A stretch of 64,000 nucleotides of DNA from Bilabrum cf. latius (Eukaryota), in assembly GCA_965178125.1 (NCBI GenBank), contig OZ237771.1, positions 248,001-312,000 of the forward strand. Direction: 5' to 3'. The notes under the pieces were generated by a model, which saw nothing but the letters and a program-made list of their open reading frames with translations, was not told where the DNA came from and ran no database searches. The translations under genes were made by a program, and so were the position numbers. Shown here in pieces: positions 40,854-64,000 of the stretch; position 1 is the stretch's first letter, and each line of letters begins with the position of its first letter.

Positions 40854-41545
40854 TTGAGACTCCGGGGCTGGGTCTTGTGCGGATGCCCCCCTGGTATATA
40901 TGATTCACTGCAAATATGGCTGGATTGCCTGCGCTCCGGTGTGACGAGCCATTGCGCAACTAGTACTGTTGGCAGAGCGGAGCGCAGAACAACCATGTAT
41001 CGATGTGTCAAGGCTTTAAAGCAACTTACAAAATCCATCATCACATCCGATCTGTAAAGATCTATCCCACTCATAGTTGGATCCGGATGCCGGATCCAGC
41101 GGGCCAGGGTACTCTGGAACACCTGAGACATCGTCATCTCTTGATCGACAGAATTGCCACTCGGGTCCACCAGGAACCCATTCCCGCTGACGAAGCACCT
41201 CTTCGCGATCGCCTCCATGTCTTCAGGATCTTGCTCAGTCTTGCCTGCGCTGATGGCCACCTGATGGCATGCCTTGCGATCCAGCACGATGCTGTACGAA
41301 TGGCGCGGCGACACCTGCATGGCGATGGGTGCCAGCAGCTCGCTCACCCTCCTTGCCCACTGGTCGATGAAGCTGCCCTGCGTGTCCTCGTCCTGCGTGG
41401 CGCTGACGAGCCCTGGCTCGCCCCCTTGCACCACGATCTTGACGTCTCTCACAAGAGAGGCAGTGCGGCTGGATTTGGAGTTGGACCACGAGGCCGAGAG
41501 CTCCACGGCTTGCTTGCCACCGCTGGCCGCGAGGTTGCCCAGCAT
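40841..41545 (-). pseudogene. Truncated/chimeric first copy of array gene M
   Basis: Matches gene M from MLGNL to SQVFQ (~41114), then runs into unrelated sequence and overlaps the 3' end of the upstream gene by 13 bp. Confidence 0.7.
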
Positions 41546-41707
41546 GAGGGCCCGTCGGATGGAGGGGCCGTCTGTGTGGTATGCTAGCGTGTCTATCGTC
41601 CGGTACTCTCGATTGTGCATCGTTAAGTCTCGTTTAAGGCATGATGGCTCTGTCCCCAAAGTTTGAATGCTGGTTGCAACCGGAACGGATGCTTTTGTAC
41701 CAATTGT

Positions 41708-41745
41708 CAAGATGAAGATACCGGTTGATGGACTGGCGAAGCATT
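41708..41745. promoter_or_regulatory. Conserved 38-bp block in the divergent P/M intergenic region (candidate bidirectional promoter element)
   Basis: CAAGATGAAGATACCGGTTGATGGACTGGCGAAGCATT is nearly invariant at 46033, 50401, 54770, 59096 and 63419, while its flanks diverge. Confidence 0.4.
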
Positions 41746-41760
41746 CGATTGAAATCTCAA

Positions 41761-43152
41761 ATGGCAGGTGTGGCTGGCTCTGAGCCTTCCACTGACTTGG
41801 GTAAATGTTCAGATCTCGAAGAGAAAACCGAAGGTCTTGAGCGTCATTTTGAAGCGCCCACCGAAATATCCCTTAGTGCTGCAGATCCTTCTTCGGTTGT
41901 ACTCGGCGACATTGCCTGGAGCACGATCAAAACTCAGGTTGTAGTATTCAGCACATTGGATCATGTGGTCGGCATACCTGCAGGATTTGCGCTTGCGCTA
42001 GTGTACCAGTTTCACATCAGCGAGCTGGAGATTATTTGCGTGGAGACTGGTGCCGTGGCAGCGTCCATTCTGTATGATGAGGAACAGGCTTTGTATTGGG
42101 ACAAGTTCTTGATTCCATCTTCAGGCAAATTCTACCACATGAACGGAGACATTCTTAAGATCGATCTGCATGCCATGACGGCGGTTTGTGCGGTCAGTGG
42201 CAGCAAACTTTCGAGAGGTGTTGGGATTCTCCACCCTGGTGTCGGGCTCTTTGTAAGCCCACGTACGCTACTTGAGATCTACATGATATCACCTGTGTCT
42301 GGAAAGGAGGTCTGCTTTGACCCGTCTGAGATTGAAGCAGTCGTCCCGGATGAGGACGAGCGCACAGCTGGCAAGCCGCTGGTCACCAAGGTGAATAAAA
42401 CATACACTGAGTCACTGATTGGGGTCTCTGTTTTTAAGGAGCAGATTGTCCATTGCGGGCGGTACAGCCAATTTACGGTGCTGCAAGACGGAAGGGTGGC
42501 AGCATGGGCGGACTACGGGGAGTGCTTCGGGGGCTTCACAGTGTGGGACCCTTCCACCAACAAGACCAGGTTTGTCGCTGACAACTTCATTCTGGATGGG
42601 AATCCCAAAGTCGAGGGCGCAGAACGTATAGTTCCCGATGAAGCTGGGTCGCGAGGCACCCTGCAGCAGGTGGGCCCGTCCCTCGTGGCTCTGTTTCTGC
42701 AGCGGCACAAATTCGGTATCGTCATCATCGACGTGGACCGAATGGAGCAGGTGGGGCTGGCGGCGGAAGGAGAGCGCATCCAGCTAGCCGAGGTGGTGCA
42801 AGTAGAAGGTCAAGATCACTGCATGCTGATTGCTGGGACTGTTGCGCCTGGTACTGTGCAGGTGTGGAAGCCTGTGACGGCGAAAGAGGGCTGGTACAAG
42901 AAGCAGCAGGAGGTGGAAATCGGTGAGAAGGTGAAGGGTATCACAGCTCTGCAGGTGGTCCCAGGGGGCAAGCTGCTGGCAGCAGGGCGAGTGGATGGCT
43001 TCGGGCATCGGCCGATCAAGGAGCATCCGATCGTGTGTTTGCAACTGAATGGGGTTGATGTGTCACTCCCTGAGGGTACCGGCAAGGAGGATCGTTCCAC
43101 TGGTGACAGTAAGCTGCTGGCCAAGCTTAAAGAGGGAGGGTACATGAAGTAA
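41761..43152 (+). CDS. Array gene P copy 1: ~463-aa beta-strand-rich, probable beta-propeller protein
   Basis: Intact ORF ending TAA. WD-like strands FTVWD, VQVWK and ITALQVVPGGKLLAAG. Confidence 0.8.
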   Translation: MAGVAGSEPSTDLGKCSDLEEKTEGLERHFEAPTEISLSAADPSSVVLGDIAWSTIKTQVVVFSTLDHVVGIPAGFALALVYQFHISELEIICVETGAVAASILYDEEQALYWDKFLIPSSGKFYHMNGDILKIDLHAMTAVCAVSGSKLSRGVGILHPGVGLFVSPRTLLEIYMISPVSGKEVCFDPSEIEAVVPDEDERTAGKPLVTKVNKTYTESLIGVSVFKEQIVHCGRYSQFTVLQDGRVAAWADYGECFGGFTVWDPSTNKTRFVADNFILDGNPKVEGAERIVPDEAGSRGTLQQVGPSLVALFLQRHKFGIVIIDVDRMEQVGLAAEGERIQLAEVVQVEGQDHCMLIAGTVAPGTVQVWKPVTAKEGWYKKQQEVEIGEKVKGITALQVVPGGKLLAAGRVDGFGHRPIKEHPIVCLQLNGVDVSLPEGTGKEDRSTGDSKLLAKLKEGGYMK

Positions 43153-43394
43153 CTGTTGGCGGCTACCCTGAACATGAATCCGCATTCGTCTGTGTACCAG
43201 TGTCCATGACCACATTGCTAAGGTTTAGCTAATAAGCAAGGTTCGTTTTGTAGATCGGGATACGTGTGTCACACTGAATTCTTGTAGAGATTCTTGAGAC
43301 GAGCAAGGCGCACGGCAGCAAATAGCAAAATCGATCTTCCAAAACAAGTTGTTGTCAAGCTGGCTGTGTAGGCACTGCAGAGACACTGTATGAA

Positions 43395-45875
43395 TCATTG
43401 GCAAGTGCACGTTCCCCCCGCCACAGTGGCACTAGCCAACTGCGACCTGCTGAAGTACTCCCAGTCGTGAGCTGGCACCCCGAGCATGAAGGACCGGCGG
43501 GAAGCGTCGTACCTGGCCTACTCGGCTGCATCCAAGTTCTTGTCGTGTGACCACGTTGCAGTACCTGCCACTCCAGCGCCCGTGTCCTTACCTTCATCAG
43601 CAGCTTTCACGAATGCAACTCGCTTCGCCTCAAGTGCATCGTTTGCTTCCTTGAGAGCATCTTCCCTTGAAGGCAGGTAGGCGTCCAGCCAGTGTGTTTC
43701 GCCGGATTTTGCCATCACCTGCAGGCACATGCGCTGGGTGACATGGGTGTGCCTGCTGTGGAGAGCGTGCGAAATCGGGTAGGGCTCCCTGAGCGACTTC
43801 AGGTGGAACTCATATCCCAAGTCCACTCCCAGCACAGCTCGCATTGCGTAGGTAGTGCTGCTCCTGGTCTCGGTCATGGACTCAAGGTGCGGGTAGATGC
43901 TGCTGCCCTTGGAGCCGCTGTTGCAGGCAGATGGGAATTGCATGAGCAATACAATGGGCTGGAAGTCCACGGGCTTAGCATACAGTGTCCAGGTGCCCGG
44001 CACAGTGGGTCGCTTCCAGACAGGACTGAGTTCAACAGGCGGCTCATCACCGACGGCACCGGTACTCTCTGCTCGAAACACGCTCACGGGCGACATGCGG
44101 TCAACGGAGACCTCGAGAATATGTTCTCCCCGGGCATCCTCAAGACTGCTCTTGATCTGGACGGAGTCCCCGTCCTAATCTCTAAATTGCCACCACAGCG
44201 GTACTCCAGTGTGGGATGTAGTAGCTGGATCATGCAGCTGGCACCTGGATTCACCGCGCCGCATCCCCTCAAGACTGTAGGCATCCAGCTTGAAGGCATT
44301 GCCCAGATCCCGGTGATCGATCCTTCGGTACTGCACTGGGATGCCGCTGTCCAAGTCGTGACGAGTGACAGCCTCTGCTTCAGGTACAGATGCACTATCG
44401 GACTCGCCATCCGGCGTTGCTTCGGTTTGAGAGTACGCCTCTGCCTTCGAGTGCAGCACATCACCTACCACCTCCCGGTACAGCGACCGCTGCTTGCACT
44501 CCTCACTGCCCATCGCATGGACTTTGGACCAGTCCAACTTCATGCTCACCGCGTCAGGGATGGTGATTTCCTCAGGCTCCTAGAACCCTGCCTCCAGTTG
44601 CGAGCAGAACCCAGTCACCACGCAGATGCGACGAACCGGGCACAGCTTCCTCGGCGAACGCTCCCCAGCACCGCCACACGACGGGAGCCAGTGGCCACAG
44701 GCATCGGAAGCCCCACCTCCCTGCCTGTGCTTCTTCGGGCAGTACCCCTGGCTGCCCACGTCCAGCATGGCATGCAGCGCCACCCAGCTGTAGGCCTCCA
44801 TGGGCAGCATGGCACACGTGCGGTCCAGCCTCTCGTCTGCATCCGTCGGTGGCTTGTCTCCGAACATGGCCTCGAAGCTGCTGCACACGGACTCGGAAGG
44901 AGGATCGAATCCCGTCTCTCCTTTCTCCGCGCAGGCGAGACGAGTGGGAGCATCTCCTGGATCACTTGGCGATGCACCTGCAAGAGTCTGCCTGTGCTTT
45001 GGTCCCCCTGTGAGCACATGGTCGGCCATCACGTTCTGGCACACTCGACAGCGATCTGTGACGTGATGGTCGTCCCTGTTCTTCTCAACGGCATCGCTGT
45101 CATCTGTGGCGGGATGCACCGCTGTTGCGTCCTCGTTGGCGATCTTGACCTCCTCGTGATTGATCAGCCGCTTTCGGTTGAAGGCTTCGTAGTCTGCATC
45201 GAGCTGCTCGCAGTCTTGGATCGGCAGGGACCGCACGTCGTCCCATCCGTTGGTTTGGAGGCTGTTGTGCTTCTCGATGAACAGGTTCAGGGTCTCGCAC
45301 GTGTCCTTCGGCAGACCAGCCCTCCCACTCTCCAGCATCGACAGCACGGTCTACGCCGCGTGAGACACAGCGACTATGTCGGAGGCCTTGCTGATCCGCT
45401 CTTCGGTCGCGGCCCAGAGCAGGAACTTCCTGGCTCTGGCGGCCTGGAACACCTGAGACATCGTCATCTCTTCATCGACGGACTTGCCACTCGGGTCCAC
45501 CAGGAACCCATTCCCGCTGACGAAGCACCTCTTCGCGATCGCCTCCATGTCTTCAGGCTTCTGCTCAGTCTTGCCGGCGCTGATGGCCACCTGATGGCAT
45601 GCCTTGCGATCCAGCACGATGCTGTACGAATGGCGCGGCGACACCTGCATGGCGATGGGTGCCAGCAGCTCGCTCACCCTCCTTGCCCACTGGTCGATGA
45701 AGCTGCCCTGCGTGTCCTCGTCCTGCGTGGCGCTGACGAGCCCTGGCTCGCCCCCTTGCACCACGATCTTGACGTCTCTCACAAGAGAGGCAGTGCGGCT
45801 GGATTTGGAGTTGGACCACGAGGCCGAGAGCTCCACGGCTTGCTTGCCACCGCTGGCAGCGAGGTTGCCCAGCAT
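43395..45875 (-). CDS. Array gene M copy A: ~826-aa protein of unknown function with a Cys/His-rich middle region (TAG=Gln)
   Basis: Four same-frame ORF fragments with TAGs at 45351, 44580, 44175 and 43518; TGA at 43395-43397. Confidence 0.75.
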
Positions 45876-46085
45876 GAGGGCCCGTCGGATGGAGGGGCCA
45901 TCTGCGCCCAATGTCCATGTTTATATTGTTCGGTGCTCTCGATACTGTATCGTTAAGTCTCGCCCTATGCGTGAGGGCTTTGTCCCGAAGATGTTTGTGT
46001 TGGTTGCAACCGTGCGTTCTTGGACCAAATATCAAGATGAAGATACCGGTTGATGGACTGGCGAAGCATTTCGACTGAATTCTAG

Positions 46086-47477
46086 ATGGCAGGTGTGGCT
46101 GGCTCTGGGTCTTCCACTGATTTGGTTACGTATGTAGATCTCAAAGACAAAACCGAAGGTCTCGAGCGTCACTTTGAGGCGCCCACCGAAGTATCACTTA
46201 GTACTGCAGATCCTTCTTCGGTTGTTCTCGGTGACATTGCCTGGAGCACGATCAAAACTCAGGTTGTCGTATTCAGCACTTTGGATCATGTGGTCGGCAT
46301 GCCTGCAGGATTTGCGCTTGCGCTAGTCTACCAGTTTCACATCAGCGAGCTGGAGATTATTTGCGTGGAGACTGGTGCCGTGGCAGCCTCTGTTGTTGTC
46401 GATATGGAGTAGCGATTATTTTGGGACAAGTTCTTTATTCCATCTTCAGGCAAATTCTACCACATGAACGGAGACATTCTCTAGATTGATCTGCATGGTA
46501 TGTCTGCTGAGAGTGTGGTGAAAGGCAGTCCCATTTCCAGAGGTGTCGGCATTCTCCACCCTGGTGTCGGGCTATATGTAAGCCCTCGTACGCCACTTTA
46601 GATTTTCATGATATCACCTGTGTCTGGAAAGGAGGTCTGCTTCGACCCGTCCGAGATTGAAGCGGTCGTCCCGGATGAGGACGAGCGCACAGCTGGCAAG
46701 CCGCTGGTCACCAAAGTGAAAAAGACGTACACTGAGTCGCTGATTGGGGTCTCTGTTTTTAAGGAGCAGATTGTCCATTGCGGGCGGTACAGTCATTTCA
46801 CGGTACTGCAGGACGGAAAAGTGGCAGGATGGGCACCGCACGGGGAGTGCTTCGGGGGCTTCACAGTGTGGGACCCTTCCACCAACAAGACCAGGTTCGT
46901 CGCTGACAACTTCATTCTGGGGGGAAATCCGTTGGTGGACGACTGGGGGGAATCAGTAGAAGATGAAGTCGTTACTGAAGGCACCCTGCAGCAGGTGGGC
47001 CCTTCGCTCGTGGCTCTGTTCCTATAGCGGCACAAATTCGGTATCGTCATCATCGACGTGGACCGAATGGAGCAGGTGGGGCTGGCGGCGGAAGGGGAGC
47101 GCATCCAGCTTGCCGAGGTGGTGCAAGTGGAAGGTCAAGATCACTGCATGCTGATTGCCGGGACTGTTGCGCCCGGGTCTGTGCAGGTGTGGAAGCCTGT
47201 GAGCGCGAAAGAGGGCTGGTACAAGAAGCAGCAGGAGGTGGAGATCGGTGAGAAGGTGAAGGGTATCACAGCTCTGCAGGTGGTCCCAGGGGGCAAGCTG
47301 CTGGCGGCAGGGCGAATGCATGGCTTCGGACATCGGCCGATCAAGGAGCACCCTATCGTGTGTTTGCAACTGGATGGAGTCGATGTGTCACTCCCTGAAG
47401 GTACCGGCAAGGAGGATCGTTCCACTGGTGACAGTAAGCTGCTGGCCAAGCTGAAGGACGGAGGGTATATGAAGTAA
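46086..47477 (+). CDS. Array gene P copy 2 (4 in-frame TAG)
   Basis: Collinear with copy 1; TAG at 46410, 46482, 46599 and 47025; TAA stop. Confidence 0.8.
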
Positions 47478-47759
47478 CTGGTAGAGGCTATCCTGAATCG
47501 GCATTCGTCTGTGTACCAGTGTGCATGACCACACTGCTAAGGTTTAGCTAATAAGCAAGATTCGTTTTTCATTTTTTATGGCTATCGGGAATCCGATTCG
47601 GGATACGTGTGTCACACTAGATTTCTATCGAGGTTCTTGAGATGAGCAAGGCGCATGGCAGCATATAAGTTATAACCTTATAAAGCAAAATCCAAATGGA
47701 TCGATCGCCCAAAACAAGCTGACGTCAAGCTGGCTGTGCAGAGACCCAGTATCAACTAC

Positions 47760-50243
47760 TCAAAGGGTGCAAGATCCCCCCCTCACAGTGGCACTAGCCA
47801 CTTGCGATCTGCTGAAGTACTCCCAGTCGTGAGCTGGCACCCCGAGCATGAAGGACCGACGGGATGCGTCGTACCTGGCCTACTCGGCTGCATCCAGGTT
47901 CTTGTCGTGTGACCACGTTGCAGTACCTGCCACTCCAGCGCCCGTGTCCTTACCTTCATTAGCTGCCTTCACGAACGCCCCTTGCTTCGCCTCAAGTGCA
48001 TCGTTTGCTTCCTTGAGAGCATCTTCGCTTGAAGGCAGGTAGGCGTCCAGCCAGTGCGTCTCGCCGGATTTTGCCATCACCTGCAGGCACATGCGCTGGG
48101 TGACATGGGTGTGCCTGCTGTGGAGACCGTGCGGGATCGGGTAGGGCTCTCTGAGCGATTTCAGGTGGAACTCATATCCCAAGTCCACTCCCAGGACTGC
48201 TCGCATTGCGTGGCGAATACTGCTCCTGGTCTCGGTCATGGACTCGAGGTGCGGGTAGATGCTGCTGCCCTTGGAGCCGCTGTTACAAGCAGATGGAAAC
48301 TGAACCAGCAAGGGAATCGGCTAGTACTTCTTAGGTTTAGCATACAGCGTCCAGGTGCCCGGCACAGTGGGTCGCTTCCAGACAGGACTGAGTTCAACAG
48401 GCGGCTCATTACCGACGGCACCGGTGCTCTCAGCTCGAAACACGCTCATGGGCGACATGCGGTCAGCGGAGAATTCCAAAGCAAAACTGCCCCTGGCGTT
48501 CAGCTAAACGGTAAGCATTGGAATATCTTCGCCCTCTGAGTCCATATCTGGGATTGGCCACCATAGTGGCACACCTGTCTGGTGCTCACTGCTTGGATCA
48601 TGCAGCTGGCACCTGGATTCACCGCGCCGCATCCCCTCAAGACTGTAGGCATCCAGCTTGAAGGTATTGCCCAGGTCCCGGTGATCGATCCTGCGGTACT
48701 GCACTGGGATGCCGCTGTCCAAGTCGTGACGAGTATCAGCCTCTGCTTCAGGTGAAGATGCACTGTCGGACTTGCCATCCGGCGTTGCTTCGGTTTGAGA
48801 GTACGCCTCCGCCTTCGAGTGCAGCACATCACCTACCACCTCCCGGTACAGCGACCGCTGCTTGCACTCGTCACTGCCCATCGCATGGACTTTGGACCAG
48901 TCCAACTTCATGCTCACTACGTCAGGGATGGTGATTTCCTCAGGCTCCTAGAAACCTGCCTCCAGTTGCGAGCAGAACCCAGTCACCACGCAGATGCGAC
49001 GAACCGGGCACAGCTTCCTCGGCGAACGCTCCCCAGCACCGCCACACGACGGGAGCCAGTGGCCACAGGCATCGGAAGCCCCACCTCCCTGCCTGTGCTT
49101 CTTCGGGCAGTACCCCTGGCTGCCCACGTCCAGCATGGCATGCAGCGCCACCCAGCTGTAGGCCTCCATGGGCAGCATGGCGCACGTGCGGTCCAGCCTC
49201 TCGTCTGCATCCGTCGGTGGCTTGTCTCCGAACATGGCCTCGAAGCTGCTGCACACGGACTCGGAAGGAGGATCGAATCCCGTCTCTCCTTTCTCCGCGC
49301 AGGCGAGACGAGTGGGAGCATCTCCTGGATCAGCTGGCGGTGCACCTGCAAGAGTCTGCCTGTGCTTTGGTCCCCCTGTGAGCACATAGTCGGCCACCAC
49401 GTTCTGGCACACTCGACAGCGATCTGTGACGTGATGGTCGTCCCTGTTCTTCTCAACGGCATCGCTGTCATCTGTGGCGGGACTCATCGTGGTTGCGTCC
49501 TCGTTGGCGATCTTGACCTCCTCGTGATCGATCAGCCGCTTTCGGTTGAAGGCTTCGTAGTCTGCATCGAGCTGCTCGCAGTCTTGGATCGGCAGGGACC
49601 GCACGTCGTCCCATCCGTTGGTTTGGAGGCTGTTGTGCTTCTCGATGAACAGGTTCAGGGTCTCGCACGTGTCCTTCGGCAGACCAGCCCTCCCATTCTC
49701 CAGCATCGACAGCACGGTCTACGCCGCGTGAGACACAGCGACTATGTCGGAGGCCTTGCTGATCCGCTCTTCGGTCGCGGCCCAGAGCAGGAACTTCCTG
49801 GCTTTGGCGGCCTGGAACACCTGAGACATCGTCATCTCTTCATCGACGGACTTGCCACTCGGGTCCACTAGGAACCCATTCCCGCTGACGAAGCACCTCT
49901 TCGCGATCGCCTCCATGTCTTCAGGATCTTGCTCAGTCTTGCCGGCGCTGATGGCCACCTGATGGCATGCCTTGCGATCCAGCACGATGCTGTACGAATG
50001 GCGCGGCGACACCTGCATGGCGATGGGTGCCGGCAGCTCGCTCACCCTCCTTGCCCACTGGTCGATGAAGCTGCTCTGCGTGTCCTCGTCCTGCGTGGCG
50101 CTGACGAGCCCTGGCTCGCCCCCCTGCACCACGATCTTGACGTCTCTCACAAGAGAGGCAGTGCGGCTGGATTTGGAGTTGGACCACGAGGCCGAGAGCT
50201 CCACGGCTTGCTTGCCACCGCTGGCAGCGAGGTTGCCCAGCAT
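47760..50243 (-). CDS. Array gene M copy B
   Basis: TAG at 49719, 48948, 48504, 48321 and 47880; TGA stop. Confidence 0.75.
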
Positions 50244-52127: not shown

Positions 52128-54611
52128 TCAAAGGGTGCAAGATCCCCCCCTCACAGTGGCACTAGCCACTTGCGATCTGCTGAAGTACTCCCAGTCGTGA
52201 GCTGGCACCCCGAGCATGAAGGACCGACGGGATGCGTCGTACCTGGCCTACTCGGCTGCATCCAGGTTCTTGTCGTGTGACCACGTTGCAGTACCTGCCA
52301 CTCCAGCGCCCGTGTCCTTACCTTCATTAGCTGCCTTCACGAACGCCCCTTGCTTCGCCTCAAGTGCATCGTTTGCTTCCTTGAGAGCATCTTCGCTTGA
52401 AGGCAGGTAGGCGTCCAGCCAGTGCGTCTCGCCGGATTTTGCCATCACCTGCAGGCACATGCGCTGGGTGACATGGGTGTGCCTGCTGTGGAGACCGTGC
52501 GGGATCGGGTAGGGCTCTCTGAGCGATTTCAGGTGGAACTCATATCCCAAGTCCACTCCCAGGACTGCTCGCATTGCGTGGCGAATACTGCTCCTGGTCT
52601 CGGTCATGGACTCGAGGTGCGGGTAGATGCTGCTGCCCTTGGAGCCGCTGTTACAAGCAGATGGAAACTGAACCAGCAAGGGAATCGGCTAGTACTTCTT
52701 AGGTTTAGCATACAGCGTCCAGGTGCCCGGCACAGTGGGTCGCTTCCAGACAGGACTGAGTTCAACAGGCGGCTCATTACCGACGGCACCGGTGCTCTCA
52801 GCTCGAAACACGCTCATGGGCGACATGCGGTCAGCGGAGAATTCCAAAGCAAAACTGCCCCTGGCGTTCAGCTAAACGGTAAGCATTGGAATATCTTCGC
52901 CCTCTGAGTCCATATCTGGGATTGGCCACCATAGTGGCACACCTGTCTGGTGCTCACTGCTTGGATCATGCAGCTGGCACCTGGATTCACCGCGCCGCAT
53001 CCCCTCAAGACTGTAGGCATCCAGCTTGAAGGTATTGCCCAGGTCCCGGTGATCGATCCTGCGGTACTGCACTGGGATGCCGCTGTCCAAGTCGTGACGA
53101 GTATCAGCCTCTGCTTCAGGTGAAGATGCACTGTCGGACTTGCCATCCGGCGTTGCTTCGGTTTGAGAGTACGCCTCCGCCTTCGAGTGCAGCACATCAC
53201 CTACCACCTCCCGGTACAGCGACCGCTGCTTGCACTCGTCACTGCCCATCGCATGGACTTTGGACCAGTCCAACTTCATGCTCACTACGTCAGGGATGGT
53301 GATTTCCTCAGGCTCCTAGAAACCTGCCTCCAGTTGCGAGCAGAACCCAGTCACCACGCAGATGCGACGAACCGGGCACAGCTTCCTCGGCGAACGCTCC
53401 CCAGCACCGCCACACGACGGGAGCCAGTGGCCACAGGCATCGGAAGCCCCACCTCCCTGCCTGTGCTTCTTCGGGCAGTACCCCTGGCTGCCCACGTCCA
53501 GCATGGCATGCAGCGCCACCCAGCTGTAGGCCTCCATGGGCAGCATGGCGCACGTGCGGTCCAGCCTCTCGTCTGCATCCGTCGGTGGCTTGTCTCCGAA
53601 CATGGCCTCGAAGCTGCTGCACACGGACTCGGAAGGAGGATCGAATCCCGTCTCTCCTTTCTCCGCGCAGGCGAGACGAGTGGGAGCATCTCCTGGATCA
53701 GCTGGCGGTGCACCTGCAAGAGTCTGCCTGTGCTTTGGTCCCCCTGTGAGCACATAGTCGGCCACCACGTTCTGGCACACTCGACAGCGATCTGTGACGT
53801 GATGGTCGTCCCTGTTCTTCTCAACGGCATCGCTGTCATCTGTGGCGGGACTCATCGTGGTTGCGTCCTCGTTGGCGATCTTGACCTCCTCGTGATCGAT
53901 CAGCCGCTTTCGGTTGAAGGCTTCGTAGTCTGCATCGAGCTGCTCGCAGTCTTGGATCGGCAGGGACCGCACGTCGTCCCATCCGTTGGTTTGGAGGCTG
54001 TTGTGCTTCTCGATGAACAGGTTCAGGGTCTCGCACGTGTCCTTCGGCAGACCAGCCCTCCCATTCTCCAGCATCGACAGCACGGTCTACGCCGCGTGAG
54101 ACACAGCGACTATGTCGGAGGCCTTGCTGATCCGCTCTTCGGTCGCGGCCCAGAGCAGGAACTTCCTGGCTTTGGCGGCCTGGAACACCTGAGACATCGT
54201 CATCTCTTCATCGACGGACTTGCCACTCGGGTCCACTAGGAACCCATTCCCGCTGACGAAGCACCTCTTCGCGATCGCCTCCATGTCTTCAGGATCTTGC
54301 TCAGTCTTGCCGGCGCTGATGGCCACCTGATGGCATGCCTTGCGATCCAGCACGATGCTGTACGAATGGCGCGGCGACACCTGCATGGCGATGGGTGCCG
54401 GCAGCTCGCTCACCCTCCTTGCCCACTGGTCGATGAAGCTGCTCTGCGTGTCCTCGTCCTGCGTGGCGCTGACGAGCCCTGGCTCGCCCCCCTGCACCAC
54501 GATCTTGACGTCTCTCACAAGAGAGGCAGTGCGGCTGGATTTGGAGTTGGACCACGAGGCCGAGAGCTCCACGGCTTGCTTGCCACCGCTGGCAGCGAGG
54601 TTACCCAGCAT
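52128..54611 (-). CDS. Array gene M copy C (near-identical to B)
   Basis: Offset +4368 from copy B. Confidence 0.75.
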
Positions 54612-54822
54612 GAGGGCCCGTCGGATGGAGGGGCCGTCTTTGTGGTATTATTACGTGTTGATCGTCCGATGCTCTCGATAATTCTGCATCGGTAAGTTTC
54701 GCGGAAGGCATGATGGCTCTCCCCAAAGTCTCGACGCTGGTTGCAACCGGTCGGTCCGGGACCAATTGTCAAGATGAAGATACCGGTTGATGGACTGGCG
54801 AAGCATTCTATTGAATTTTCAA

Positions 54823-56214
54823 ATGGCAGGTGCGGCTGGCTCTGAGCCTTCCAATGATTTGGTTAAATATTCAGATCTCGAAGAGAAAACCGAAGGTCTT
54901 GAGCGTCACTTTGAAGCGCCCACCGAAATATCACTTAGTACTGCAGATCCTTCTTCTGTTGTACTCGGTGACGTAGTGTGGAGCACGATCAAAACTCAGG
55001 TTGTCGTATTCAGCACTTTGGATCATGTGGTCGGCATGCCTGCAGGATTTGCGCTTGCGCTAGTGTACCAGTTTCACATCAGCGAGCTGGAGATTATTTG
55101 CGTGGAGACTGGTGCCGTGGCAGCGTCCATTCTATATGATGAAGATCAAGGAATATTTTGGGACAAGTTCTTGATTCCACCTTCAGGCAAATTCTACCAC
55201 ATGAACGGAGACATTCTTAAGATCGATCTGCACGCCATGGCGGCTTCATGCGTGGTAAGTGGCCGCGAACTATCGAGAAGTGTTGGCATTCTCCACCATG
55301 ATATCGGGCTCTTTGTTAGCCCTCTTACACCGTTTCAGATATACATGATATCACCTGTGTCTGGGAAAGAGGTCTGCTTCGAAGCATCCGAGATTGAGGC
55401 AGTCGTCCCGGATGAGGATGAGCGCACAGCTGGCAAACCAATGGTCACGAGAGTGAAAAAGACGTACACTGAGTCGCTGCTACATGCATCCGTATTCAAG
55501 GAGCAGATTGTGGGGTGCGGGAGGTACAGCCAATTTACGGTGCTGCAAGACGGAAGGGTGGCCGCGTGGGCTCCGCACGGGGAGTGCTTCGGGGGCTTCA
55601 CAGTGTGGGACCCTTCCACCAACAAGACCAGGTTCGTCGCTGACAACTTCATTCTGGAGGGAAATCCAAGAGTTGATGGCTGGTCAAAGACTGTCGAAGA
55701 TGATATCACATCGAAAGGCACTGTTCAACAGGTGGGCCCGTCCCTCGTGGCTCTGTTCCTGCAGCGACACAAATTCGGTATCGTCATCATTGATGTGGAC
55801 CGAATGGAGCAGGTGGGGCTGGCGGCGGAAGGGGAGCGCATCCAGCTTGCCGAGGCGGTGCAAGTGGAAGGTCAAGATCACTGTATGCTGATTGCTGGGA
55901 CTGTTGCGCCTGGTACTGTGCAGGTGTGGAAGCCCGTGAGCGCGAAAGAGGGCTGGTACAAGAAGCAGCAGGAGGTGGAAATCGGTGAGAAGGTAAAGGG
56001 TATCACAGCTCTTGAGGTGGTCCCAGGGGGCAAGCTGCTGGCAGCAGGGCGAGTGGATGGCTTCGGGCATCGGCCGATCAAGGAGCATCCGATCGTGTGT
56101 TTGCAACTGAATGGGGTTGATGTGTCACTCCCTGAGGGTACCGGCAAGGAGGATCGTTCCACTGGTGACAGTAAGCTGCTGGCCAAGCTTAAAGAGGGAG
56201 GGTACATGAAGTAA
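54823..56214 (+). CDS. Array gene P copy 4
   Basis: Intact ORF with no TAG; TAA stop. Confidence 0.8.
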   Translation: MAGAAGSEPSNDLVKYSDLEEKTEGLERHFEAPTEISLSTADPSSVVLGDVVWSTIKTQVVVFSTLDHVVGMPAGFALALVYQFHISELEIICVETGAVAASILYDEDQGIFWDKFLIPPSGKFYHMNGDILKIDLHAMAASCVVSGRELSRSVGILHHDIGLFVSPLTPFQIYMISPVSGKEVCFEASEIEAVVPDEDERTAGKPMVTRVKKTYTESLLHASVFKEQIVGCGRYSQFTVLQDGRVAAWAPHGECFGGFTVWDPSTNKTRFVADNFILEGNPRVDGWSKTVEDDITSKGTVQQVGPSLVALFLQRHKFGIVIIDVDRMEQVGLAAEGERIQLAEAVQVEGQDHCMLIAGTVAPGTVQVWKPVSAKEGWYKKQQEVEIGEKVKGITALEVVPGGKLLAAGRVDGFGHRPIKEHPIVCLQLNGVDVSLPEGTGKEDRSTGDSKLLAKLKEGGYMK

Positions 56215-56456: not shown

Positions 56457-58937
56457 TCATTGGCAAGTGCACGTTCCCCCCGCCACAGTGGCACTAGCCA
56501 ACTGCGACCTGCTGAAGTACTCCCAGTCGTGAGCTGGCACCCCGAGCATGAAGGACCGGCGGGAAGCGTCGTACCTGGCCTACTCGGCTGCATCCAAGTT
56601 CTTGTCGTGTGACCACGTTGAAGTACCTGCCACTCCAGCGCCCGTGTCCTTACCTTCATCAGCAGCTTTCACGAATGCAACTCGCTTCGCCTCAAGTGCA
56701 TCGTTTGCTTCCTTGAGAGCATCTTCCCTTGAAGGCAGGTAGGCGTCCAGCCAGTGTGTTTCGCCGGATTTTGCCATCACCTGCAGGCACATGCGCTGGG
56801 TGACATGGGTGTGCCTGCTGTGGAGAGCGTGCGAAATCGGGTAGGGCTCCCTGAGCGACTTCAGGTGGAACTCATATCCCAAGTCCACTCCCAGCACAGC
56901 TCGCATTGCGTAGGTAGTGCTGCTCCTGGTCTCGGTCATGGACTCAAGGTGCGGGTAGATGCTGCTGCCCTTGGAGCCGCTGTTGCAGGCAGATGGGAAT
57001 TGCATGAGCAATGCAATGGGCTGGAAGTCCACGGGCTTAGCATACAGTGTCCAGGTGCCCGGCACAGTGGGTCGCTTCCAGACAGGACTGAGTTCAACAG
57101 GCGGCTCATCACCGACGGCACCGGTACTCTCTGCTCGAAACACGCTCACGGGCGACATGCGGTCAACGGAGACCTCGAGAATATGTTCTCCCCGGGCATC
57201 CTCAAGACTGCTCTTGATCTGGACGGAGTCCCCGTCCTAATCTCTAAATTGCCACCACAGCGGTACTCCAGTGTGGGATGTAGTAGCTGGATCATGCAGC
57301 TGGCACCTGGATTCACCGCGCCGCATGCCCTCAAGACTGTAGGCATCCAGCTTGAAGGCATTGCCCAGATCCCGGTGATCGATCCTTCGGTACTGCACTG
57401 GGATGCCGCTGTCCAAGTCGTGACGAGTGACAGCCTCTGCTTCAGGTACAGATGCACTATCGGACTCGCCATCCGGCGTTGCTTCGGTTTGAGAGTACGC
57501 CTCTGCCTTCGAGTGCAGCACATCACCTACCACCTCCCGGTACAGCGACCGCTGCTTGCACTCCTCACTGCCCATCGCATGGACTTTGGACCAGTCCAAC
57601 TTCATGCTCACCGCGTCAGGGATGGTGATTTCCTCAGGCTCCTAGAAACCTGCCTCCAGTTGCGAGCAGAACCCAGTCACCACGCAGATGCGACGAACCG
57701 GGCACAGCTTCCTCGGCGAACGCTCCCCAGCACCGCCACACGACGGTAGCCAGTGGCCACAGGCATCGGAAGCCCCACCCACCGGCATGTGCTTCTTCGG
57801 GCAGTACCCCTGGCTGCCCACGTCCAGCATGGCATGCAGCGCCACCCAGCTGTAGGCCTCCATGGGCAGCATGGCGCACGTGCGGTCCAGCCTCTCGTCT
57901 GCATCCGTCGGTGGCTTGTCTCCGAACATGGCCTCGAAGCTGCTGCACACGGACTCGGAAGGAGGATCGAATCCCGTCTCTCCTTTCTCCGCGCAGGCGA
58001 GACGAGTGGGGGCATCTCCTGGATCAGTTGGCGGTGCACCTGCAAGAGTCTGCCTGTGCTTTGGTCCCCCGGTGAGCACATAGTCGGCCACCACGTTCTG
58101 GCACACTCGACAGCGATCTGTGACGTGATGGTCGTCCCTGTTCTTCTCAACGGCATCGCTGTCAGCTGTGGCGGGACTCACCGTGGTTGCGTCCTCGTTG
58201 GCGATCTTGACCTCCTCGTGATCGATCAGCCGCTTTCGGTTGAAGGCTTCGTAGTCTGCATCGAGCTGCTCGCAGTCTTGGATCGGCAGGGACCGCACGT
58301 CGTCCCATCCGTTGGTTTGGAGGCTGTTGTGCTTCTCGATGAACAGGTTCAGGGTCTCGCACGTATCCTTCGGCAGACCAGCCCTCCCATTCTCCAGCAT
58401 CGACAGCACGGTCTACGCCGCGTGAGACACAGCGACGATGTCGGAGGCCTTGCTGATCCGCTCTTCGGTCGCGGCCCAGAGCAGGAACTTCCTGGCTTTG
58501 GCGGCCTGGAACACCTGAGACATCGACATCTCTTCATCGACAGAATTGCCACTCGCGTCCACCAGGAACCCATTCCCGCTGACGAAGCACCTCTTCGCGA
58601 TCGCCTCCATGTCTTCAGGATTCTGCTTAGTCTTGCCGGCGCTGATGGCCACCTGATGGCATGCCTTGCGATCAAGCACGATGCTGTACGAATGGCGCGG
58701 CGACACCTGCATGGCGATGGGTGCCGGCAGCTCGCTCACCCTCCTTGCCCACTGGTCGATGAAGCTGCCCTGCGTGTCCTCGTCCTGCGTGGCGCTGACA
58801 AGCCCTGGCTCACCCCCCTGCACCACGATCTTGACGTCTCTCACAAGAGAGGCAGTGCGGCTGGATTTGGAGTTGGACCACGAGGCCGAGAGCTCCACGG
58901 CTTGCTTGCCACCGCTGGCAGCGAGGTTGCCCAGCAT
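56457..58937 (-). CDS. Array gene M copy D (A-type C-terminal half)
   Basis: TAG at 58413, 57642, 57237 and 56580; TGA stop. Confidence 0.75.
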
Positions 58938-59149
58938 GAGGGCCCGTCGGATGGAGGGGCCGTCTTTGTGGTATTATTACGTGTTGATCGTCCGATGCTC
59001 TCGATGATTCTGCATCGGTAAGTTTCGCGGAAGGCATGATGGCTCTCCCCAAAGTCTCGACGCTGGTTGCAACCGGTCGGTCCGGGACCAATTGTCAAGA
59101 TGAAGATATCGGCTGATGGACTGGCGAAGCATTCCCATTGAATTTTCAA

Positions 59150-60541
59150 ATGGCAGGTGTGGCTGGCTCTGAGCCTTCCAATGATTTGGTTAAATATTCA
59201 GATCTCAAAGAGAAAACCGAAGGTCTCGAGCGTCACTTTGAAGCGCCCACCGAAATATCACTTAGTACTGCAGATCCTTCTTCTGTTGTACTCGGTGATG
59301 TAGTCTGGAGCACGATCAAAACTCAGATTGTAGTATTCAGCACATTGGATCATGTGGCCGGCATGCCTGCAGGATTTGCGCTTGCGCTAGTCTACCAGTT
59401 TCACATCAGCGAGCTGGAGATTATTTGCGTGGAGACTGGTGCCGTGGCAGCGTCAATTGTTGTAGACAAGGAGCAGGCATTGTATTGGGACAAGTTCTTG
59501 ATTCCATCTTCAGGCAAATTCTATCACTTAAATCGCGACCTGCTCTAGATTGATCTGCATGGTATGTCTGCTGAGAGTGTGGTGAAAGGCCGTCCTATTT
59601 CCAGAGGTGTTGGGATTCTTCACCCTGGTGTCGGGCTATATGTAAGCCCTCGTACGCCACTTTAGATTTTCATGATATCACCTGTGTCTGGGAAAGAAGT
59701 CTGCTTCGAAGCATCCGAGATTGAAGCAGTCGTCCCGGATGAGGATGAGCGCACAGCTGGCAAGCCAATGGTCACCAAAGTGAAAAAGACGTACACTGAA
59801 TCACTGATTGGAGTCTCTGTATTTGAGGAACAGATCGTACATTGCGGGCGGTACAACCATTTCACGGTGCTGCAGGACGGAAGGGTGGCAGCGTGGGCGG
59901 ACTACGGGGAGTGCTTCGGGGGCTTCACAGTGTGGGACCCTTCCACCAACAAGACCAGGTTCGTCGCTGACAACTTCATTCTGGAGGGAAATCCAAGAGT
60001 TGAGGGCGCGGAACGCATAGTTCCCGATGAAGGTGGATCGAGGGGTACCCTGCAGCAGGTGGGCCCTTCGCTAGTGGCTATGTTCCTGCAGCGACACAAA
60101 TTCGGTATCGTCATCATTGACGTGGACCGAATGGAGCAGGTGGGGCTGGCGGCGGAAGGGGAGCGCCTCCAGCTTGCCGAGGCGGTGCAAGTGGAAGGTC
60201 AAGATCACTGCATGCTGATTGCCGGGACTGTTGCGCCTGGTACTGTGCAGGTGTGGAAGCCCGTGAGCGCGAAAGAGGGCTGGTACAAGAAGCAGTAGGA
60301 AGTGGAGATCGGTGAGAAGGTGAAGGGTATCACAGCTCTTGAGGTGGTCCCAGGGGGCAAGCTGCTGGCGGCAGGGCGAATGCATGGCTTCGACGAGCGG
60401 CCGATCAAGGAGCATCCGATTGTGTGTTTGCAACTTGATGGAGTCGATTTGTCACTCCCTGAAGGTACCGGCAAGGAGGATCGTTCCACTGGTGACAGTA
60501 AGCTGCTGGCAAAACTGAAGGAGGGAGGGTACATGAAGTAA
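59150..60541 (+). CDS. Array gene P copy 5 (3 in-frame TAG)
   Basis: TAG at 59546, 59663 and 60296; TAA stop. Confidence 0.8.
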
Positions 60542-60776
60542 CTGGTAGAGTCCATCCGAAATCTGCATTCTTCTGTGTACCAGTGTCCATGACCACATTG
60601 CTAAGGTTTAGCTAATAAGCAAGGTTTGTTTTCTAGATCTAAATGCGTGTATCACTTTACATTCTTGTAGAGGTTCTTGAGACGAGCAAAGCGTGTGAAA
60701 GCATATAGCAAAATCGATCGTCCAAAACAAGCACACGTCCAGCTTGCTGTGCAGAGACCCAGTATCAATCCATAGT

Positions 60777-63260
60777 TCAAAGGGTACAAGTTCCCCCCGT
60801 CACAGATGCACTAGACACTTGCGACCTGCTGAAGTACTCCCAGTCGTGAGCTGGCACCCCAAGCATGAAGGACCGGCGGGATGCGTCGTACCTGGCCTGC
60901 TCCGCTGCATCCAAGTTCTTGTCGTGTGACCACGTTGAAGTACCTGCGAATCCAGCGCCCGTGTCCTTGCCTTCGTCAGCAGCTTTCACGAATGCCCCTT
61001 GCTTCGCCTCAAATGCATCGTTTGCTTCCTTGAGAGCATCTTCGCTTGAAGGCAGGTAGGCGTCCAGCCAGTGTGTTTCGCCGGATTTTGCCATCACCTG
61101 CAGGCACATGCGCTGGGTGACATGCGTGTGCCTGCTATGGAGAGCGCGCGGAATCGGGTAGGGCTCTCTGAGCGATTTCAGGTGGAACTCATATCCCAAG
61201 TCCACTCCCAGCACAGCTCGCATTGCGTGGCGAATACTGCTCCTGGTCTCGGTCATGGACTCGAGGTGCGGGTAGATGCTGCTGCCCTTGGAGCCGCTGT
61301 TACAAGCAGATGGAAACTGAACCAGCAAGGGAATCGGCTAGTACTTCTTAGGTTTAGCATACAGCGTCCAGGTGCCCGGCACAGTGGGTCGCTTCCAGAC
61401 AGGACTGAGTTCAACAGGCGGCTCATTACCGACGGCACCGGTGCTCTCAGCTCGAAACACGCTCATGGGCGACATGCGGTCAGCGGAGAATTCCAAAGCA
61501 AAACTGCCCCTGGCGTTCAGCTAAACGGTAAGCATTGGAATATCTTCGCCCTCTGAGTCCATATCTGGGATTGGCCACCATAGTGGCACACCTGTCTGGT
61601 GCTCACTGCTTGGATCATGCAGCTGGCACCTGGATTCACCGCGCCGCATGCCCTCAAGACTGTAGGCATCCAGCTTGAAGGTATTGCCCAGGTCCCGGTG
61701 ATCGATCCTGCGGTACTGCACTGGGATGCCGCTGTCCATGTCGTGACGAGTATCAGCCTCTGCTTCAGGTGAAGATGCACTGTCGGACTTGCCATCCGGC
61801 GTTGCTTCGGTTTGAGAGTACGCCTCCGCCTTCGAGTGCAGCACATCACCTACCACCTCCCGGTACAGCGACCGCTGCTTGCACTCGTCACTGCCCATCG
61901 CATGGACTTTGGACCAGTCCAACTTCATGCTCACCGCGTCAGGGATGGTGATTTCCTCAGGCTCCTAGAAACCTGCCTCCAGTTGCGAGCAGAACCCAGT
62001 CACCACGCAGATGCGACGAACCGGGCACAGCTTCCTCGGCGAACGCTCCCCAGCACCGCCACACGTCGGGAGCCAGTGGCCACAGGCATCGGAAGCACCA
62101 CCTTCCGGCATGTGCTTCTTCGGGCAGTACCCCTGGCTGCCCACGTCCAGCATGGCATGCAGCGCCACCCAGCTGTAGGCCTCCATGGGCAGCATGGCGC
62201 ACGTGCGGTCCAGCCTCTCGTCTGCATCCGTCGGTGGCTTGTCTCCGAACATGGCCTCGAAGCTGCTGCACACGGACTCGGAAGGAGGATCGAATCCCGT
62301 CTCTCCTTTCTCCGCGCAGGCGAGACGAGTGGGAGCATCTCCTGGATCAGCTGGCGGTGCACCTGCAAGAGTCTGCCTGTGCTTTGGTCCCCCTGTGAGC
62401 ACATAGTCGGCCACCACGTTCTGGCACACTCGACAGCGATCTGTGACGTGATGGTCGTCCCTGTTCTTCTCAACGGCATCGCTGTCAGCTGTGGCGGGAC
62501 TCACCGTGGTTGCGTCCTCGTTGGCGATCTTGACCTCCTCGTGATCGATCAGCCGCTTTCGGTTGAAGGCTTCGTAGTCTGCATCGAGCTGCTCGCAGTC
62601 TTGGATCGGCAGGGACCGCACGTCGTCCCATCCGTTGGCCGGGAGGCTGTTGTGCTTCTCGATGAACAGCTTCAGGGTCTCGCACGTGTCCTTCGGCAGA
62701 CCAGCCCTCCCATTCTCCAGCATCGACAGCACGGTCTACGCCGCGTGAGACACAGCGACGATGTCGGAGGCCTTGCTGATCCGCTCTTCGGTCGCGGCCC
62801 AGAGCAGGAACTTCCTGGCTTTGGCGGCCTGGAACACCTGAGACATCGTCATCTCTTCATCGACGGACTTGCCACTCGGGTCCACTAGGAACCCATTCCC
62901 GCTGACGAAGCACCTCTTCGCGATCGCCTCCATGTCTTCAGGATCTTGATCAGTTTTGCCGGCGCTGATGGCCACCTGATGGCATGCCTTGCGATCCAGC
63001 ACGATGCTGTACGAATGGCGCGGCGACACCTGCATGGCGATGGGTGCCGGCAGCTCGCTCACCCTCCTTGCCCACTGGTCGATGAAGCTGCTCTGCGTGT
63101 CCTCGTCCTGCGTGGCGCTGACCAGCCCTGGCTCGCCCCCCTGCACCACGATCTTGACGTCTCTCACAAGAGAGGCAGTGCGGCTGGATTTGGAGTTGGA
63201 CCACGAGGCCGAGAGCTCCACGGCTTGCTTGCCACCGCTGGCAGCGAGGTTACCCAGCAT
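60777..63260 (-). CDS. Array gene M copy E (B-type variable block)
   Basis: TAG at 62736, 61965, 61521 and ~61338. Has CAG where copies A-D have TAG (AAE-Q-ARY). Confidence 0.75.
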
Positions 63261-63472
63261 GAGGGCCCGTCGGATGGAGGGGCCGTCTTTGTGGTATTAT
63301 TACGTGTTGATCGTCCGATGCTCTCGATGATTCTGCATCGGTAAGTTTCGCGGAAGGCATGATGGCTCTCCCCAAAGTCTCGACGCTGGTTGCAACCGGT
63401 CGGTCCGGGACCAATTGTCAAGATGAAGATATCGGCTGATGGACTGGCGAAGCATTTCTATTGAATTTTCAA

Positions 63473-64000
63473 ATGGCAGGTGCGGCTGGCTCTGAGCCTT
63501 CCAATGATTTGGTTAAATATTCAGATCTCGAAGAGAAAACCGAAGGTCTCGAGCGTCACTTTGAAGCGCCCACCGAAATATCACTTAGTACTGCAGATCC
63601 TTCTTCTGTTGTACTCGGTGACGTAGTGTGGAGCACGATCAAAACTCAGGTTGTCGTATTCAGCACTTTGGATCATGTGGTCGGCATGCCTGCAGGATTT
63701 GCGCTTGCGCTAGTCTACCAGTTTCACATCAGCGAGCTGGAGATTATTTGCGTGGAGACTGGTGCCGTGGCAGCGTCCATTCTATATGATGAAGATCAAG
63801 GAATATTTTGGGACAAGTTCTTGATTCCACCTTCAGGCAAATTCTACCACATGAACGGAGACATTCTTAAGATCGATCTGCACGCCATGGCGGCTTCATG
63901 CGTGGTAAGTGGCCGCGAACTATCGAGAAGTGTTGGCATTCTCCACCATGATATCGGGCTCTTTGTTAGCCCTCTTACACCGTTTCAGATATACATGATA
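63473..64000 (+). CDS. Array gene P copy 6, partial (near-identical to copy 4)
   Basis: ATG GCA GGT at 63473; open to the window end. Confidence 0.75.
   Translation, partial: MAGAAGSEPSNDLVKYSDLEEKTEGLERHFEAPTEISLSTADPSSVVLGDVVWSTIKTQVVVFSTLDHVVGMPAGFALALVYQFHISELEIICVETGAVAASILYDEDQGIFWDKFLIPPSGKFYHMNGDILKIDLHAMAASCVVSGRELSRSVGILHHDIGLFVSPLTPFQIYMI

Follow-up and report, generated by a model that had tools for sequence, protein, structure and literature searches.

What would keep two genes facing each other, tail to tail, in a tandem array whose units are nearly identical except in a few strongly diverged blocks? The question is raised by a 64,000-nucleotide stretch (the window) of the genome of Bilabrum cf. 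latius. An initial annotation described units of ~4.3 kb, each with a gene P on the plus strand and a gene M of ~826 aa on the minus strand a short distance away, and proposed that the two form a cognate pair of the toxin-antidote or recognition type. The units (4330, 4368, 4368, 4326 and 4323 bp), strands and short P-M gaps (242–289 bp) are as described. The window holds six P starts and five M ORFs of 826–827 aa, and covers only the tail of a real tandem array on contig C37. The array cannot be put down to assembly error alone, because runs X2 and X8, which come from two studies, both contain its truncation junction as a loose end (X2 is possibly the assembly's own source). The features are as follows, with positions counted in the window unless a contig is named.

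41114..41570, minus strand: M0, M fragment at the array edge, cut at both ends (exon-2 nucleotides 839–1299 of the full gene)
41672..41681: palindrome GGTTGCAACC, ~85–90 bp upstream of P1
41761..43152, plus strand: P1, 463 aa, predicted WD40-like beta-propeller with no signal peptide; candidate immunity protein
42991..43011, plus strand: last-blade loop of P (P1 copy, residues 411–417), covarying with the M loop
43395..45875, minus strand: M-A, orphan 5'-truncated copy of the MACPF gene with an intact ORF; alpha block, VDF loop
43956..43976, minus strand: M loop KPxxxxP after GTWTLY (M-A copy), partner site of the P loop
44100..44230, minus strand: M hypervariable block (alpha in M-A; beta in M-B, M-C and M-E; a third type in M-F)
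46086..47477, plus strand: P2
47760..50243, minus strand: M-B, truncated orphan, beta block, KKY loop
50454..51845, plus strand: P3, protein identical to P2; the unit is a very recent duplicate
52128..54611, minus strand: M-C, truncated orphan, protein identical to M-B
54823..56214, plus strand: P4
56457..58937, minus strand: M-D, truncated orphan, alpha block, VDF loop
59150..60541, plus strand: P5
60777..63260, minus strand: M-E, truncated orphan, beta block, KKY loop
63473..64000, plus strand: P6, 5' part; the gene continues to C37:312864
C37:313942-317899, minus strand, outside the window: M-F, full two-exon MACPF gene, 1214 aa, predicted signal peptide, 313-bp intron
C37:318147-321700, plus strand, outside the window: R, second MACPF-like gene, 1143 aa, 122-bp intron

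This genome reads TAG as glutamine, and the P and M ORFs of the window are open only under that reading. RIP-like mutation was rejected as the source of the TAG codons: TAG alone occurs within matches, never TAA or TGA, and it does so in single-copy genes too. A literature search on the genetic code of bicosoecids found nothing. A 737-aa frame runs antisense to M but is interrupted in other units, and was dismissed as a shadow.

The initial annotation could recognize neither protein, and overlooked R, the third gene, as well as the truncation and the MACPF domain of M. By its sequence, M is predicted to be a secreted-type MACPF protein. The full gene, M-F, scores 30.2 bits against Pfam PF01823 (MACPF) and a copy on C6 scores 40.9 bits, both above the curated cut-off of 21.5 bits. 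The five M copies of the window lack exon 1, which encodes the signal peptide, and the first ~280 codons of exon 2, and score 12–16.5 bits; the ~826-aa frames are thus present, each opened by an in-frame ATG, but as truncated copies of a 1214-aa gene rather than as whole genes. The hydropathy peak over the first 30 residues is 2.9 for M-F, 2.1 for the C6 M, 2.0 for R and −0.0 to 0.5 for P. M contains 25 cysteines, many of them invariant, which suggest an oxidizing compartment. Its AlphaFold model has a mean pLDDT of 29, its signature region aligns with that of C8-alpha only at E = 2, a weak match, and no toxic motif was recognized in its C-terminus.

Truncation has occurred at four independent points (exon-2 codons ~134, ~205, ~280 and ~362 of ~1100), all inside the MACPF domain. 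Such 5'-truncated modules, each with an intact partner gene, number five on C37, seven on C6 and one on C23, and every orphan in the window keeps the whole variable C-terminus together with an intact P, which has its own upstream motif. The motif, GGTTGCAACC, recurs at 46002, 50370, 54739, 59065 and 63388 and so lies upstream of all six P copies; there are seven matches in the window against 0.07 expected, six of them being copies of one repeat unit. The same palindrome or a one-base variant precedes several P copies on C6 and C23, and may be a promoter element.

Three genes, P(+) M(-) R(+), make up the basic unit, with R head-to-head with M-F and 247 bp between their starts. M is MACPF-type and R MACPF-like, and both are spliced in RNA-like runs and hydrophobic at their N-termini. 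Against PF01823, the C37 R scores 18.3 bits (E 0.0028), a partial C6 R 8.4 bits and the C23 R nothing, in each case short of the cut-off; a distant R-like protein on C31 exceeds it at 30.5 bits, and an M profile matches R at E 1.8e-5. The spliced frames of M-F and R are open. Both introns are skipped in run X5 and the M intron in X7, and they are retained in X2; no run is on record as RNA. Joints of the alpha/beta type and the truncation junction are among the matches listed for X2 and X8, not for X5 and X7, and as contigs show presence only, this is not evidence that the orphans are silent. Copies of R and of the front of M hardly vary within a subfamily; variation comes in blocks, in P and in the C-terminal part of M: C6 R copies are 98% identical, and most pairs of C6 P genes and of C6 M C-termini differ by 6–17%.

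P, 463 aa when counted from its conserved MAGV/MAGA start, is predicted by modelling to be a WD40-like beta-propeller (pLDDT 57, pTM 0.62). The best Foldseek matches of the model are WD40 propellers (E about 1e-9), and comparison with YncE gives a VIA Z of 22.0 (rmsd 3.5, 290 aligned), with many propellers tied at Z 19–20. A Pfam scan of four P copies returned no family, WD40 repeats included, and a feature look-alike search returned only unnamed or propeller clusters with low recognition. Hydropathy revealed no signal peptide or membrane anchor (highest 19-residue value after residue 30, 1.67 for P and 1.1 for M), suggesting that P is cytosolic.

All 21 complete M 3' ends (six on C37, 13 on C6 and two on C23) face a P, across three loci whose subfamilies are 25–48% identical. 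The C6 cluster also harbours virophage/polinton-like insertions.

The variation is indeed concentrated in discrete blocks, those quoted in the initial annotation among them, with ~30–40 differences per 100 columns against 0–5 in the 5' half of M; the P loop common to P1 and P5 was likewise confirmed. Only 7 columns distinguish unit 2 from unit 3, so the window holds four independent pairs, as had been counted. The annotation further held that a type I block in P always accompanies an alpha M and a type II block a beta M. The rule holds for the five pairs inside the window and breaks at the sixth: P6, although a type I copy 1.5% away from P4, stands opposite M-F, whose third type is 14–16% from alpha and beta in the C-terminal part. 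Three of the 7 residues separating P6 from P4 fall in the last-blade loop. Nor is type I one allele: P1 is 11.4% from P4, a distance close to the 12.1% that separates it from P2. M-A and M-D are near-identical (0.7%) but face P1 and P4, 11% apart. Pairing each P with its 5' M neighbour instead gives no pattern (alpha-II, beta-II, beta-I, alpha-II, beta-I). The annotation had named free combination of types in further units as the test of its pairing, and on that test the specific matching of P block 1 with alpha or beta M is refuted; the match seen in the window is accounted for by a single, mostly continuous haplotype running from ~42981 to 44225.

A different pair of sites covaries on C6. 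There the last-blade loop of P and the M loop match in 13 of 13 cassettes (11 of 11 when two recent duplicates are removed), and their charges are opposite in all 13 and anticorrelated (Spearman −0.87). The sites that lie between the loops recombine: 12 of 28 in P and 24 of 76 in M show all four gametes. The state of the P loop is likewise tracked by a second M island located in between (r2 0.73). A permutation test of the best-supported block gave p = 0.0013 (n=13) and 0.0043 (n=11) with a statistic picked after the data had been seen. Complex prediction for one C6 pair (P with the C-terminal 383 aa of M, two runs without alignments) scored 0.00 and is evidence neither way.

The broader idea of a cognate system of toxin-antidote type gains support that the initial annotation did not have, from a predicted secreted MACPF protein, from P facing M in every cassette and from the loop match on C6. 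Our preferred reading, to which we give a probability of roughly 0.42, is a polymorphic two-component pore-forming toxin locus of a eukaryote, with immunity genes and orphan cassettes in a layout like that of contact-dependent inhibition (CDI) loci. M and R would form the pore; the M C-terminus would set specificity, through target binding or a delivered activity; and P would neutralize the M variant it matches, with the covarying loops forming part of the interface. Orphans would provide an immunity library and a store of spare C-termini. Crossing over of M-F with an orphan, within the conserved arm of ~1.6 kb, would carry a new C-terminus into the expressed position along with its facing P, and this would account for the tail-to-tail layout. 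The likely targets would be related cells carrying other variants. More tentative still is the evolutionary form of this reading, in which a free-living protist independently evolved a bacterial-style polymorphic toxin with a swappable MACPF tip aimed at non-kin, variant-specific propeller immunity and recombining orphan cassettes. Such a system would let a unicellular eukaryote tell kin from non-kin by mutual killing.

The main objection to the immunity reading is topological. M appears secreted and P cytosolic, and a meeting of the two would need cytosolic entry of the M C-terminus or an unusual export of P. Further points against it are a fourth, distant M/R pair on C31 that lacks a P, pN/pS below 1, and the absence of the charge rule on C37 (Spearman −0.30, n=5), where P2 is basic and faces a basic M loop. 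The separate compartments and the C31 pair fit an M/R pore directed at prey or parasites, with the truncated copies as silent gene-conversion donors for the binding domain of M, and with P as a separate cytosolic sensor or adaptor whose loops covary through a shared ligand or through linkage, without contact. Heavy conversion is evident in the mosaic patterns, the viral-type insertions on C6 accord with such a role, and the available text of one study (PMC12853789) describes receptor specificity of BSAP-1 as set by the C-terminal domains of that MACPF protein. We nevertheless consider this explanation unlikely, as it does not readily account for the P found opposite M in every one of the 21 cassettes, deep subfamilies included, or for opposite loop charges in 13 of 13 C6 cassettes.

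Linkage poses a separate challenge. Because whole cassettes duplicate, common ancestry is enough to produce covariation, and linkage does account for part of the C6 loop match. Selection might then have favoured more or different P, with the M pieces as passengers and the covariation reflecting passive linkage of 3' ends. The linked C37 sites form one mostly continuous block, the C6 P-M correlation is highest between the physically nearest windows (rho 0.68–0.75), and a plain family-wise test of any shared partition is not significant (p 0.37–0.91). Positive selection was not found either: pN/pS is 0.27–0.41 taken as a whole and stays under 1 within the main variable blocks. Passengers would, however, not be expected to keep open 826-codon frames in five of five window orphans and uninterrupted frames in six of seven truncated C6 copies, or to be cut at four points that all spare the post-MACPF part whole. 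Moreover, perfect linkage at distances of at least 300 bp is rare within either gene (7 of 875 site pairs in P, 37 of 7891 in M), and yet the C6 loops match across gaps of 0.5–12.9 kb. We therefore regard hitchhiking as rather unlikely. An intracellular poison-antidote or decoy, the explanation nearest to the original proposal, in which a signal-less 826-aa M made from the internal ATG stays cytosolic and is checked by the facing P within a selfish cassette, would remove the topology problem and suit the intact ATG-opened frames of all five window copies and the palindrome between junction and P, but is improbable given that truncated M lacks the front half of its MACPF domain, that truncation points vary among loci so that no single truncated product is conserved, and that the many invariant cysteines suggest an oxidizing compartment.

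Searches beyond this genome retrieved no M homologue among ~8000 scored candidates (single sequence and profile). One search with P retrieved only P itself, and another, of 1.84 billion representatives, gave two hits, the close variants P0004 and P0005, which are absent from the copies found in this genome. No related locus was found in metagenome or viral contigs, and no homologue in other lineages, blanks that are weakened because code-11 gene calls break genes that read TAG as glutamine. A literature search that extended to protist allorecognition, and left most subscription papers uncovered, found no eukaryotic MACPF locus of such layout.

If the immunity reading is right, P would stand for a new class of MACPF inhibitor that acts on particular variants, and the locus would offer a mechanism, open to testing, for antagonism between protist strains. 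With 21 natural pairs and, on C6, a two-state loop code, direct assays of binding should be simple to set up. Should P and M not interact, the locus would still be a two-component perforin system, diversified by cassettes, of a kind not described before.

Complement C8/C9, perforin-2 and fungal PlyA/PlyB share the MACPF fold predicted for M and form multi-component pores, as M and R may; no variable cassette array or linked variable propeller is known for any of them. Tgr proteins are cell-surface adhesion proteins, whereas P has no signal peptide; they are not known to be MACPF proteins or propellers, or to come with truncated toxin cassettes. The tgrB1/tgrC1 genes of Dictyostelium, like P and M, are a linked polymorphic pair in a protist, situated in a duplication and recombination hotspot (PMC12745789). 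Bacteroidales BSAP toxins join a MACPF domain to a C-terminal domain (PMC12853789, in part), as M does with one that could set target specificity; BSAPs are lipoproteins, whereas this locus adds a second, MACPF-like subunit and a propeller partner, and our sequence searches with M retrieved no BSAP relative. Two-component CDCL toxins of Bacteroides are encoded as related pore-forming subunits together, with BcdI blocking pore formation (PMC11169675), and here too there are two related candidate pore subunits and a third gene. In the sections available to us, however, CDCLs are CDC-like, BcdI is a surface lipoprotein and no orphan array is described, whereas our candidate subunits match MACPF only and P carries no export signal.

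The closest parallels in layout are bacterial. As far as the consulted excerpts go, in CDI loci a full-length gene, conserved at its front and variable at its C-terminus, is followed by orphan toxin/immunity modules (PMC9086364), and Vibrio cholerae carries orphan T6SS immunity arrays (PMC5361080); here, likewise, a gene with a conserved front is followed by a row of truncated C-terminal copies with intact partners. Compared with CDI loci as excerpted there, this one is eukaryotic and has introns, its front is a MACPF domain instead of a two-partner-secretion or Rhs body, its partner gene is convergent, its orphans retain an in-frame ATG and ~1.6 kb of conserved arm, and its putative toxin variants are mosaics 85–99% identical rather than unrelated toxin domains. 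We found no two-partner secretion, Rhs or T6SS delivery domain, MACPF being the sole domain found, and the locus is laid out like a CDI/Rhs-type polymorphic toxin locus without being a member of that class. In bacteria, arrays of orphan toxin and immunity genes are a hallmark of warfare among kin, and our preferred reading, if true, would mean that their logic evolved convergently in a eukaryote.

P, M and R, a second MACPF-like gene, form a real and undescribed three-gene system. The window (G000:C37:248001-312000; C37 is contig OZ237771.1) comes from a 48.6-Mb eukaryotic assembly, and its array, gene sizes and variable blocks proved to be as the initial annotation had described them. As no more than 7 columns distinguish units 2 and 3, the window offers four independent pairs. 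All five window M genes begin near codon 280 of exon 2; the signal peptide and the first half of the MACPF domain are missing, and everything downstream of that domain is kept. P is predicted to fold as a WD40-like propeller; a Pfam scan of P returned no match, and no signal peptide was found in it. The palindrome GGTTGCAACC lies ~85-90 bp upstream of P in 6/6 C37 copies. Each of P1-P6 also has an extra ATG 33-34 bp ahead of its conserved start (window 41728 and matching sites before P2-P6); the two share a reading frame in P1-P4 but not in P5-P6. Across all three subfamilies the N-terminal MA(G/A)(V/A)AG of P is conserved; the rest of the tail is unconserved.

Other features of the window
1780-3840 and 9789-11840: 2-kb duplicated segment, 92% identity
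3997-4558 and 4923-5477: tandem repeats of 51 and 57 bp
5422-7854 and 16504-20118 (-): paralogous pair of genes that combine a kinase with armadillo repeats, the number of repeats (126-bp unit) differing greatly between them; possibly a variable sensor family; the second an example of TAG read as Gln
25501-31548: further example of TAG read as Gln (as is stretch L072:2924-4960)
35694-40853 (+): 1719-aa protein directly adjoining the array, with folate-receptor, VWA and Cache domains, which we take to be alpha2delta/CACHD1-like

Judged from the sequences, the nuclear code evidently assigns TAG to Gln, with TAA and TGA still stops. Internal stops in P, M and R matches are exclusively TAG; the codons opposite TAG in paralog alignments are most commonly CAG/CAA (15 of 40 tallied), followed by the one-step neighbours AAG and GAG; and in-frame TAG is present in single-copy genes too, a (6-4) photolyase among them. 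The terminators of 43 P and M frames were TGA (36) or TAA (7).

Past the window, P6 ends at C37:312864 and is followed by a 1084-bp (1.08-kb) spacer and then by M-F, a full M. The spacer owes its length to ~0.8 kb of extra sequence (stretch L011:2620-3340); part of this addition has very high depth in 4/4 sequencing runs compared and is therefore probably a repeat element. Exon 2 of M-F alone spans ~1114 codons, and an upstream exon encodes a hydrophobic N-terminus. The 313-bp intron is skipped in contigs from runs X5 and X7 (two studies; RNA status guessed only, with a flag on X5 as probable DNA), and X2 contigs retain it; once spliced, the frame runs open through 1214 aa. M-F and one C6 paralog match MACPF above the Pfam cut-off. 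R starts 247 bp from M-F, head-to-head, and encodes 1143 aa with a hydrophobic N-terminus and a weak match to MACPF; its 122-bp GT-AG intron is skipped in X5.

The arrangement recurs on other contigs of the assembly. C6:263-543 kb contains 13 P-M cassettes, whose identity to C37 is ~40-48%, along with five R matches, one of them in pieces; the four open R copies there are 98% identical. C23 contributes two further cassettes with a single R (~25% identity). Every M copy with a complete 3' end (21/21) faces a tail-to-tail P; four fragments of M that lack the 3' end, at the C37 array edge and at C37:322 kb, C6:125 kb and C23:567 kb, are not part of this count. On C6, M exon 2 is whole in 6/13 copies and truncated in 7/13; at least four separate truncations have occurred, at codons ~134, ~205, ~280 and ~362 of ~1100, all inside the MACPF part. 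A fourth, distant, single-copy M/R pair (C31:351.8-359.6 kb; stretches L071 and L073) is head-to-head and without P; the gene downstream of it looks homeobox-like by eye. A whole-genome Pfam scan gave 21 MACPF matches, and the further MACPF genes listed, including the head-to-head ones on C1 and C11, did not match M, P or R profiles.

M fragments and further MACPF genes
C37:322.4-322.8 kb: stray short M fragment without C-terminus
C6:125-126.7 kb: the same
C23:567.5-568.4 kb: the same
C1:23-37 kb; C11:325-328 kb, 346-349 kb and 420 kb; C31:559 kb: further MACPF genes, some head-to-head

Low-GC virophage/polinton-like insertions lie within cassette genes at C6:341-387 kb and 466-489 kb (stretches L030-L034, L018, L039-L041). 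They carry rve integrases, Prim-Pol and a V20-like capsid; they split one P and, in one M, cut off exon 2 from exon 1. Long ORFs in them stay open solely if TAG encodes Gln, and one gene uses TAG at 21/35 Gln codons, which suggests that they have adapted to the code of the host. In these integrated elements and in gene style the host may resemble Cafeteria-type flagellates.

The proposed rule that type I P accompanies alpha M, and type II beta, does not survive the first pair added: P6, 1.5% apart from P4, faces a third M block that differs over the C-terminal part by 14-16% from alpha and from beta. On C6 there is overall covariation of P with the M C-terminus (Mantel rho 0.52, n = 11, two interrupted cassettes omitted; rho 0.41, p 0.017, n = 9 without two recent duplicates), peaking between physically nearest windows. 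The last-blade loop of P and the M loop after GTWTLY are matched in 13/13 C6 cassettes, neutral-to-basic P facing acidic M in six and acidic P facing basic M in seven (charge Spearman -0.87, over non-independent points), the genes lying 0.5 to 12.9 kb apart. The P loop has an r2 of 0.01-0.05 with sites 30-60 bp from it, and four gametes occur between the loops at 12/28 P and 24/76 M sites. On the other side of the balance, the P loop is tracked as well by a second M island between the loops (r2 0.73); in the any-shared-partition test some sharing is expected by chance (p 0.37-0.91); and the significant test on these loops (p 0.0013 and 0.0043) was picked post hoc and is one by which selection and shared ancestry are inseparable. 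On C37 these loops go together too (D412 of P with VDF of M, H412 with KKY; 5/5 distinct pairs), but they do so within one haplotype block and follow no charge rule (Spearman -0.30). Nearly all informative sites at ~42981-44225 share one partition among units 1, 2, 4 and 5: the P 3' end, spacer and variable M part move as one block in the window. pN/pS, at 0.27-0.41 overall, gives no sign of positive selection, and in the variable blocks synonymous divergence climbs together with non-synonymous divergence. This pattern fits variants that are apparently old, retained and resistant to homogenisation rather than recently selected.

The analysis establishes the domains, splicing, truncation, triad conservation and loop association. 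Our leading reading, at a probability of roughly 0.4, is a polymorphic two-subunit pore toxin with a variant-matched P inhibitor and an orphan library (orphans being 5'-truncated M copies facing intact P). M and R would together form the pore, the M C-terminus would be the specificity module, P would inhibit the M variant that it matches, and the window would serve as the orphan library. With P on the 3' side of M, crossing over within the conserved arm would bring in a new M tip along with its P. Pore formation, toxicity, binding, immunity and switching are all inferred in this scheme. It is most vulnerable on topology: the features of M point to a secreted, disulfide-rich protein, those of P to a cytosolic one. 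With that separation in mind, a recognition arm with an independently acting P is the strongest competitor, though an improbable one, to be weighed against the matched C6 loops. Hitchhiking, marginally less probable still, is favoured by the single haplotype block on C37. A cytosolic poison-antidote pair is distinctly unlikely.

The pore toxin reading derives from likeness to known systems: a CDI-like layout together with CDCL- and BSAP-like parts suggests an M/R pore, C-terminal specificity and inhibition by P. Searches for P or M homologs found none beyond what seem to be variants belonging to this organism or a close one, blanks that the non-standard code weakens, and the portions of literature consulted yielded no MACPF locus in a eukaryote that combined orphan cassettes with a linked variable propeller. 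Bacterial CDI loci have the layout seen here (PMC9086364; cf. PMC5361080), a full gene followed by orphan toxin tips with expressed immunity genes that possibly recombine into the full gene (PMC9086364). The parts resemble two-component CDCL toxins and their inhibitor BcdI (PMC11169675), and are also reminiscent of BSAP-1, whose receptor specificity is set by its C-terminal domain (PMC12853789). The system stands outside the CDI, CDCL, BSAP and Tgr families, yet it is arranged like a polymorphic toxin locus.
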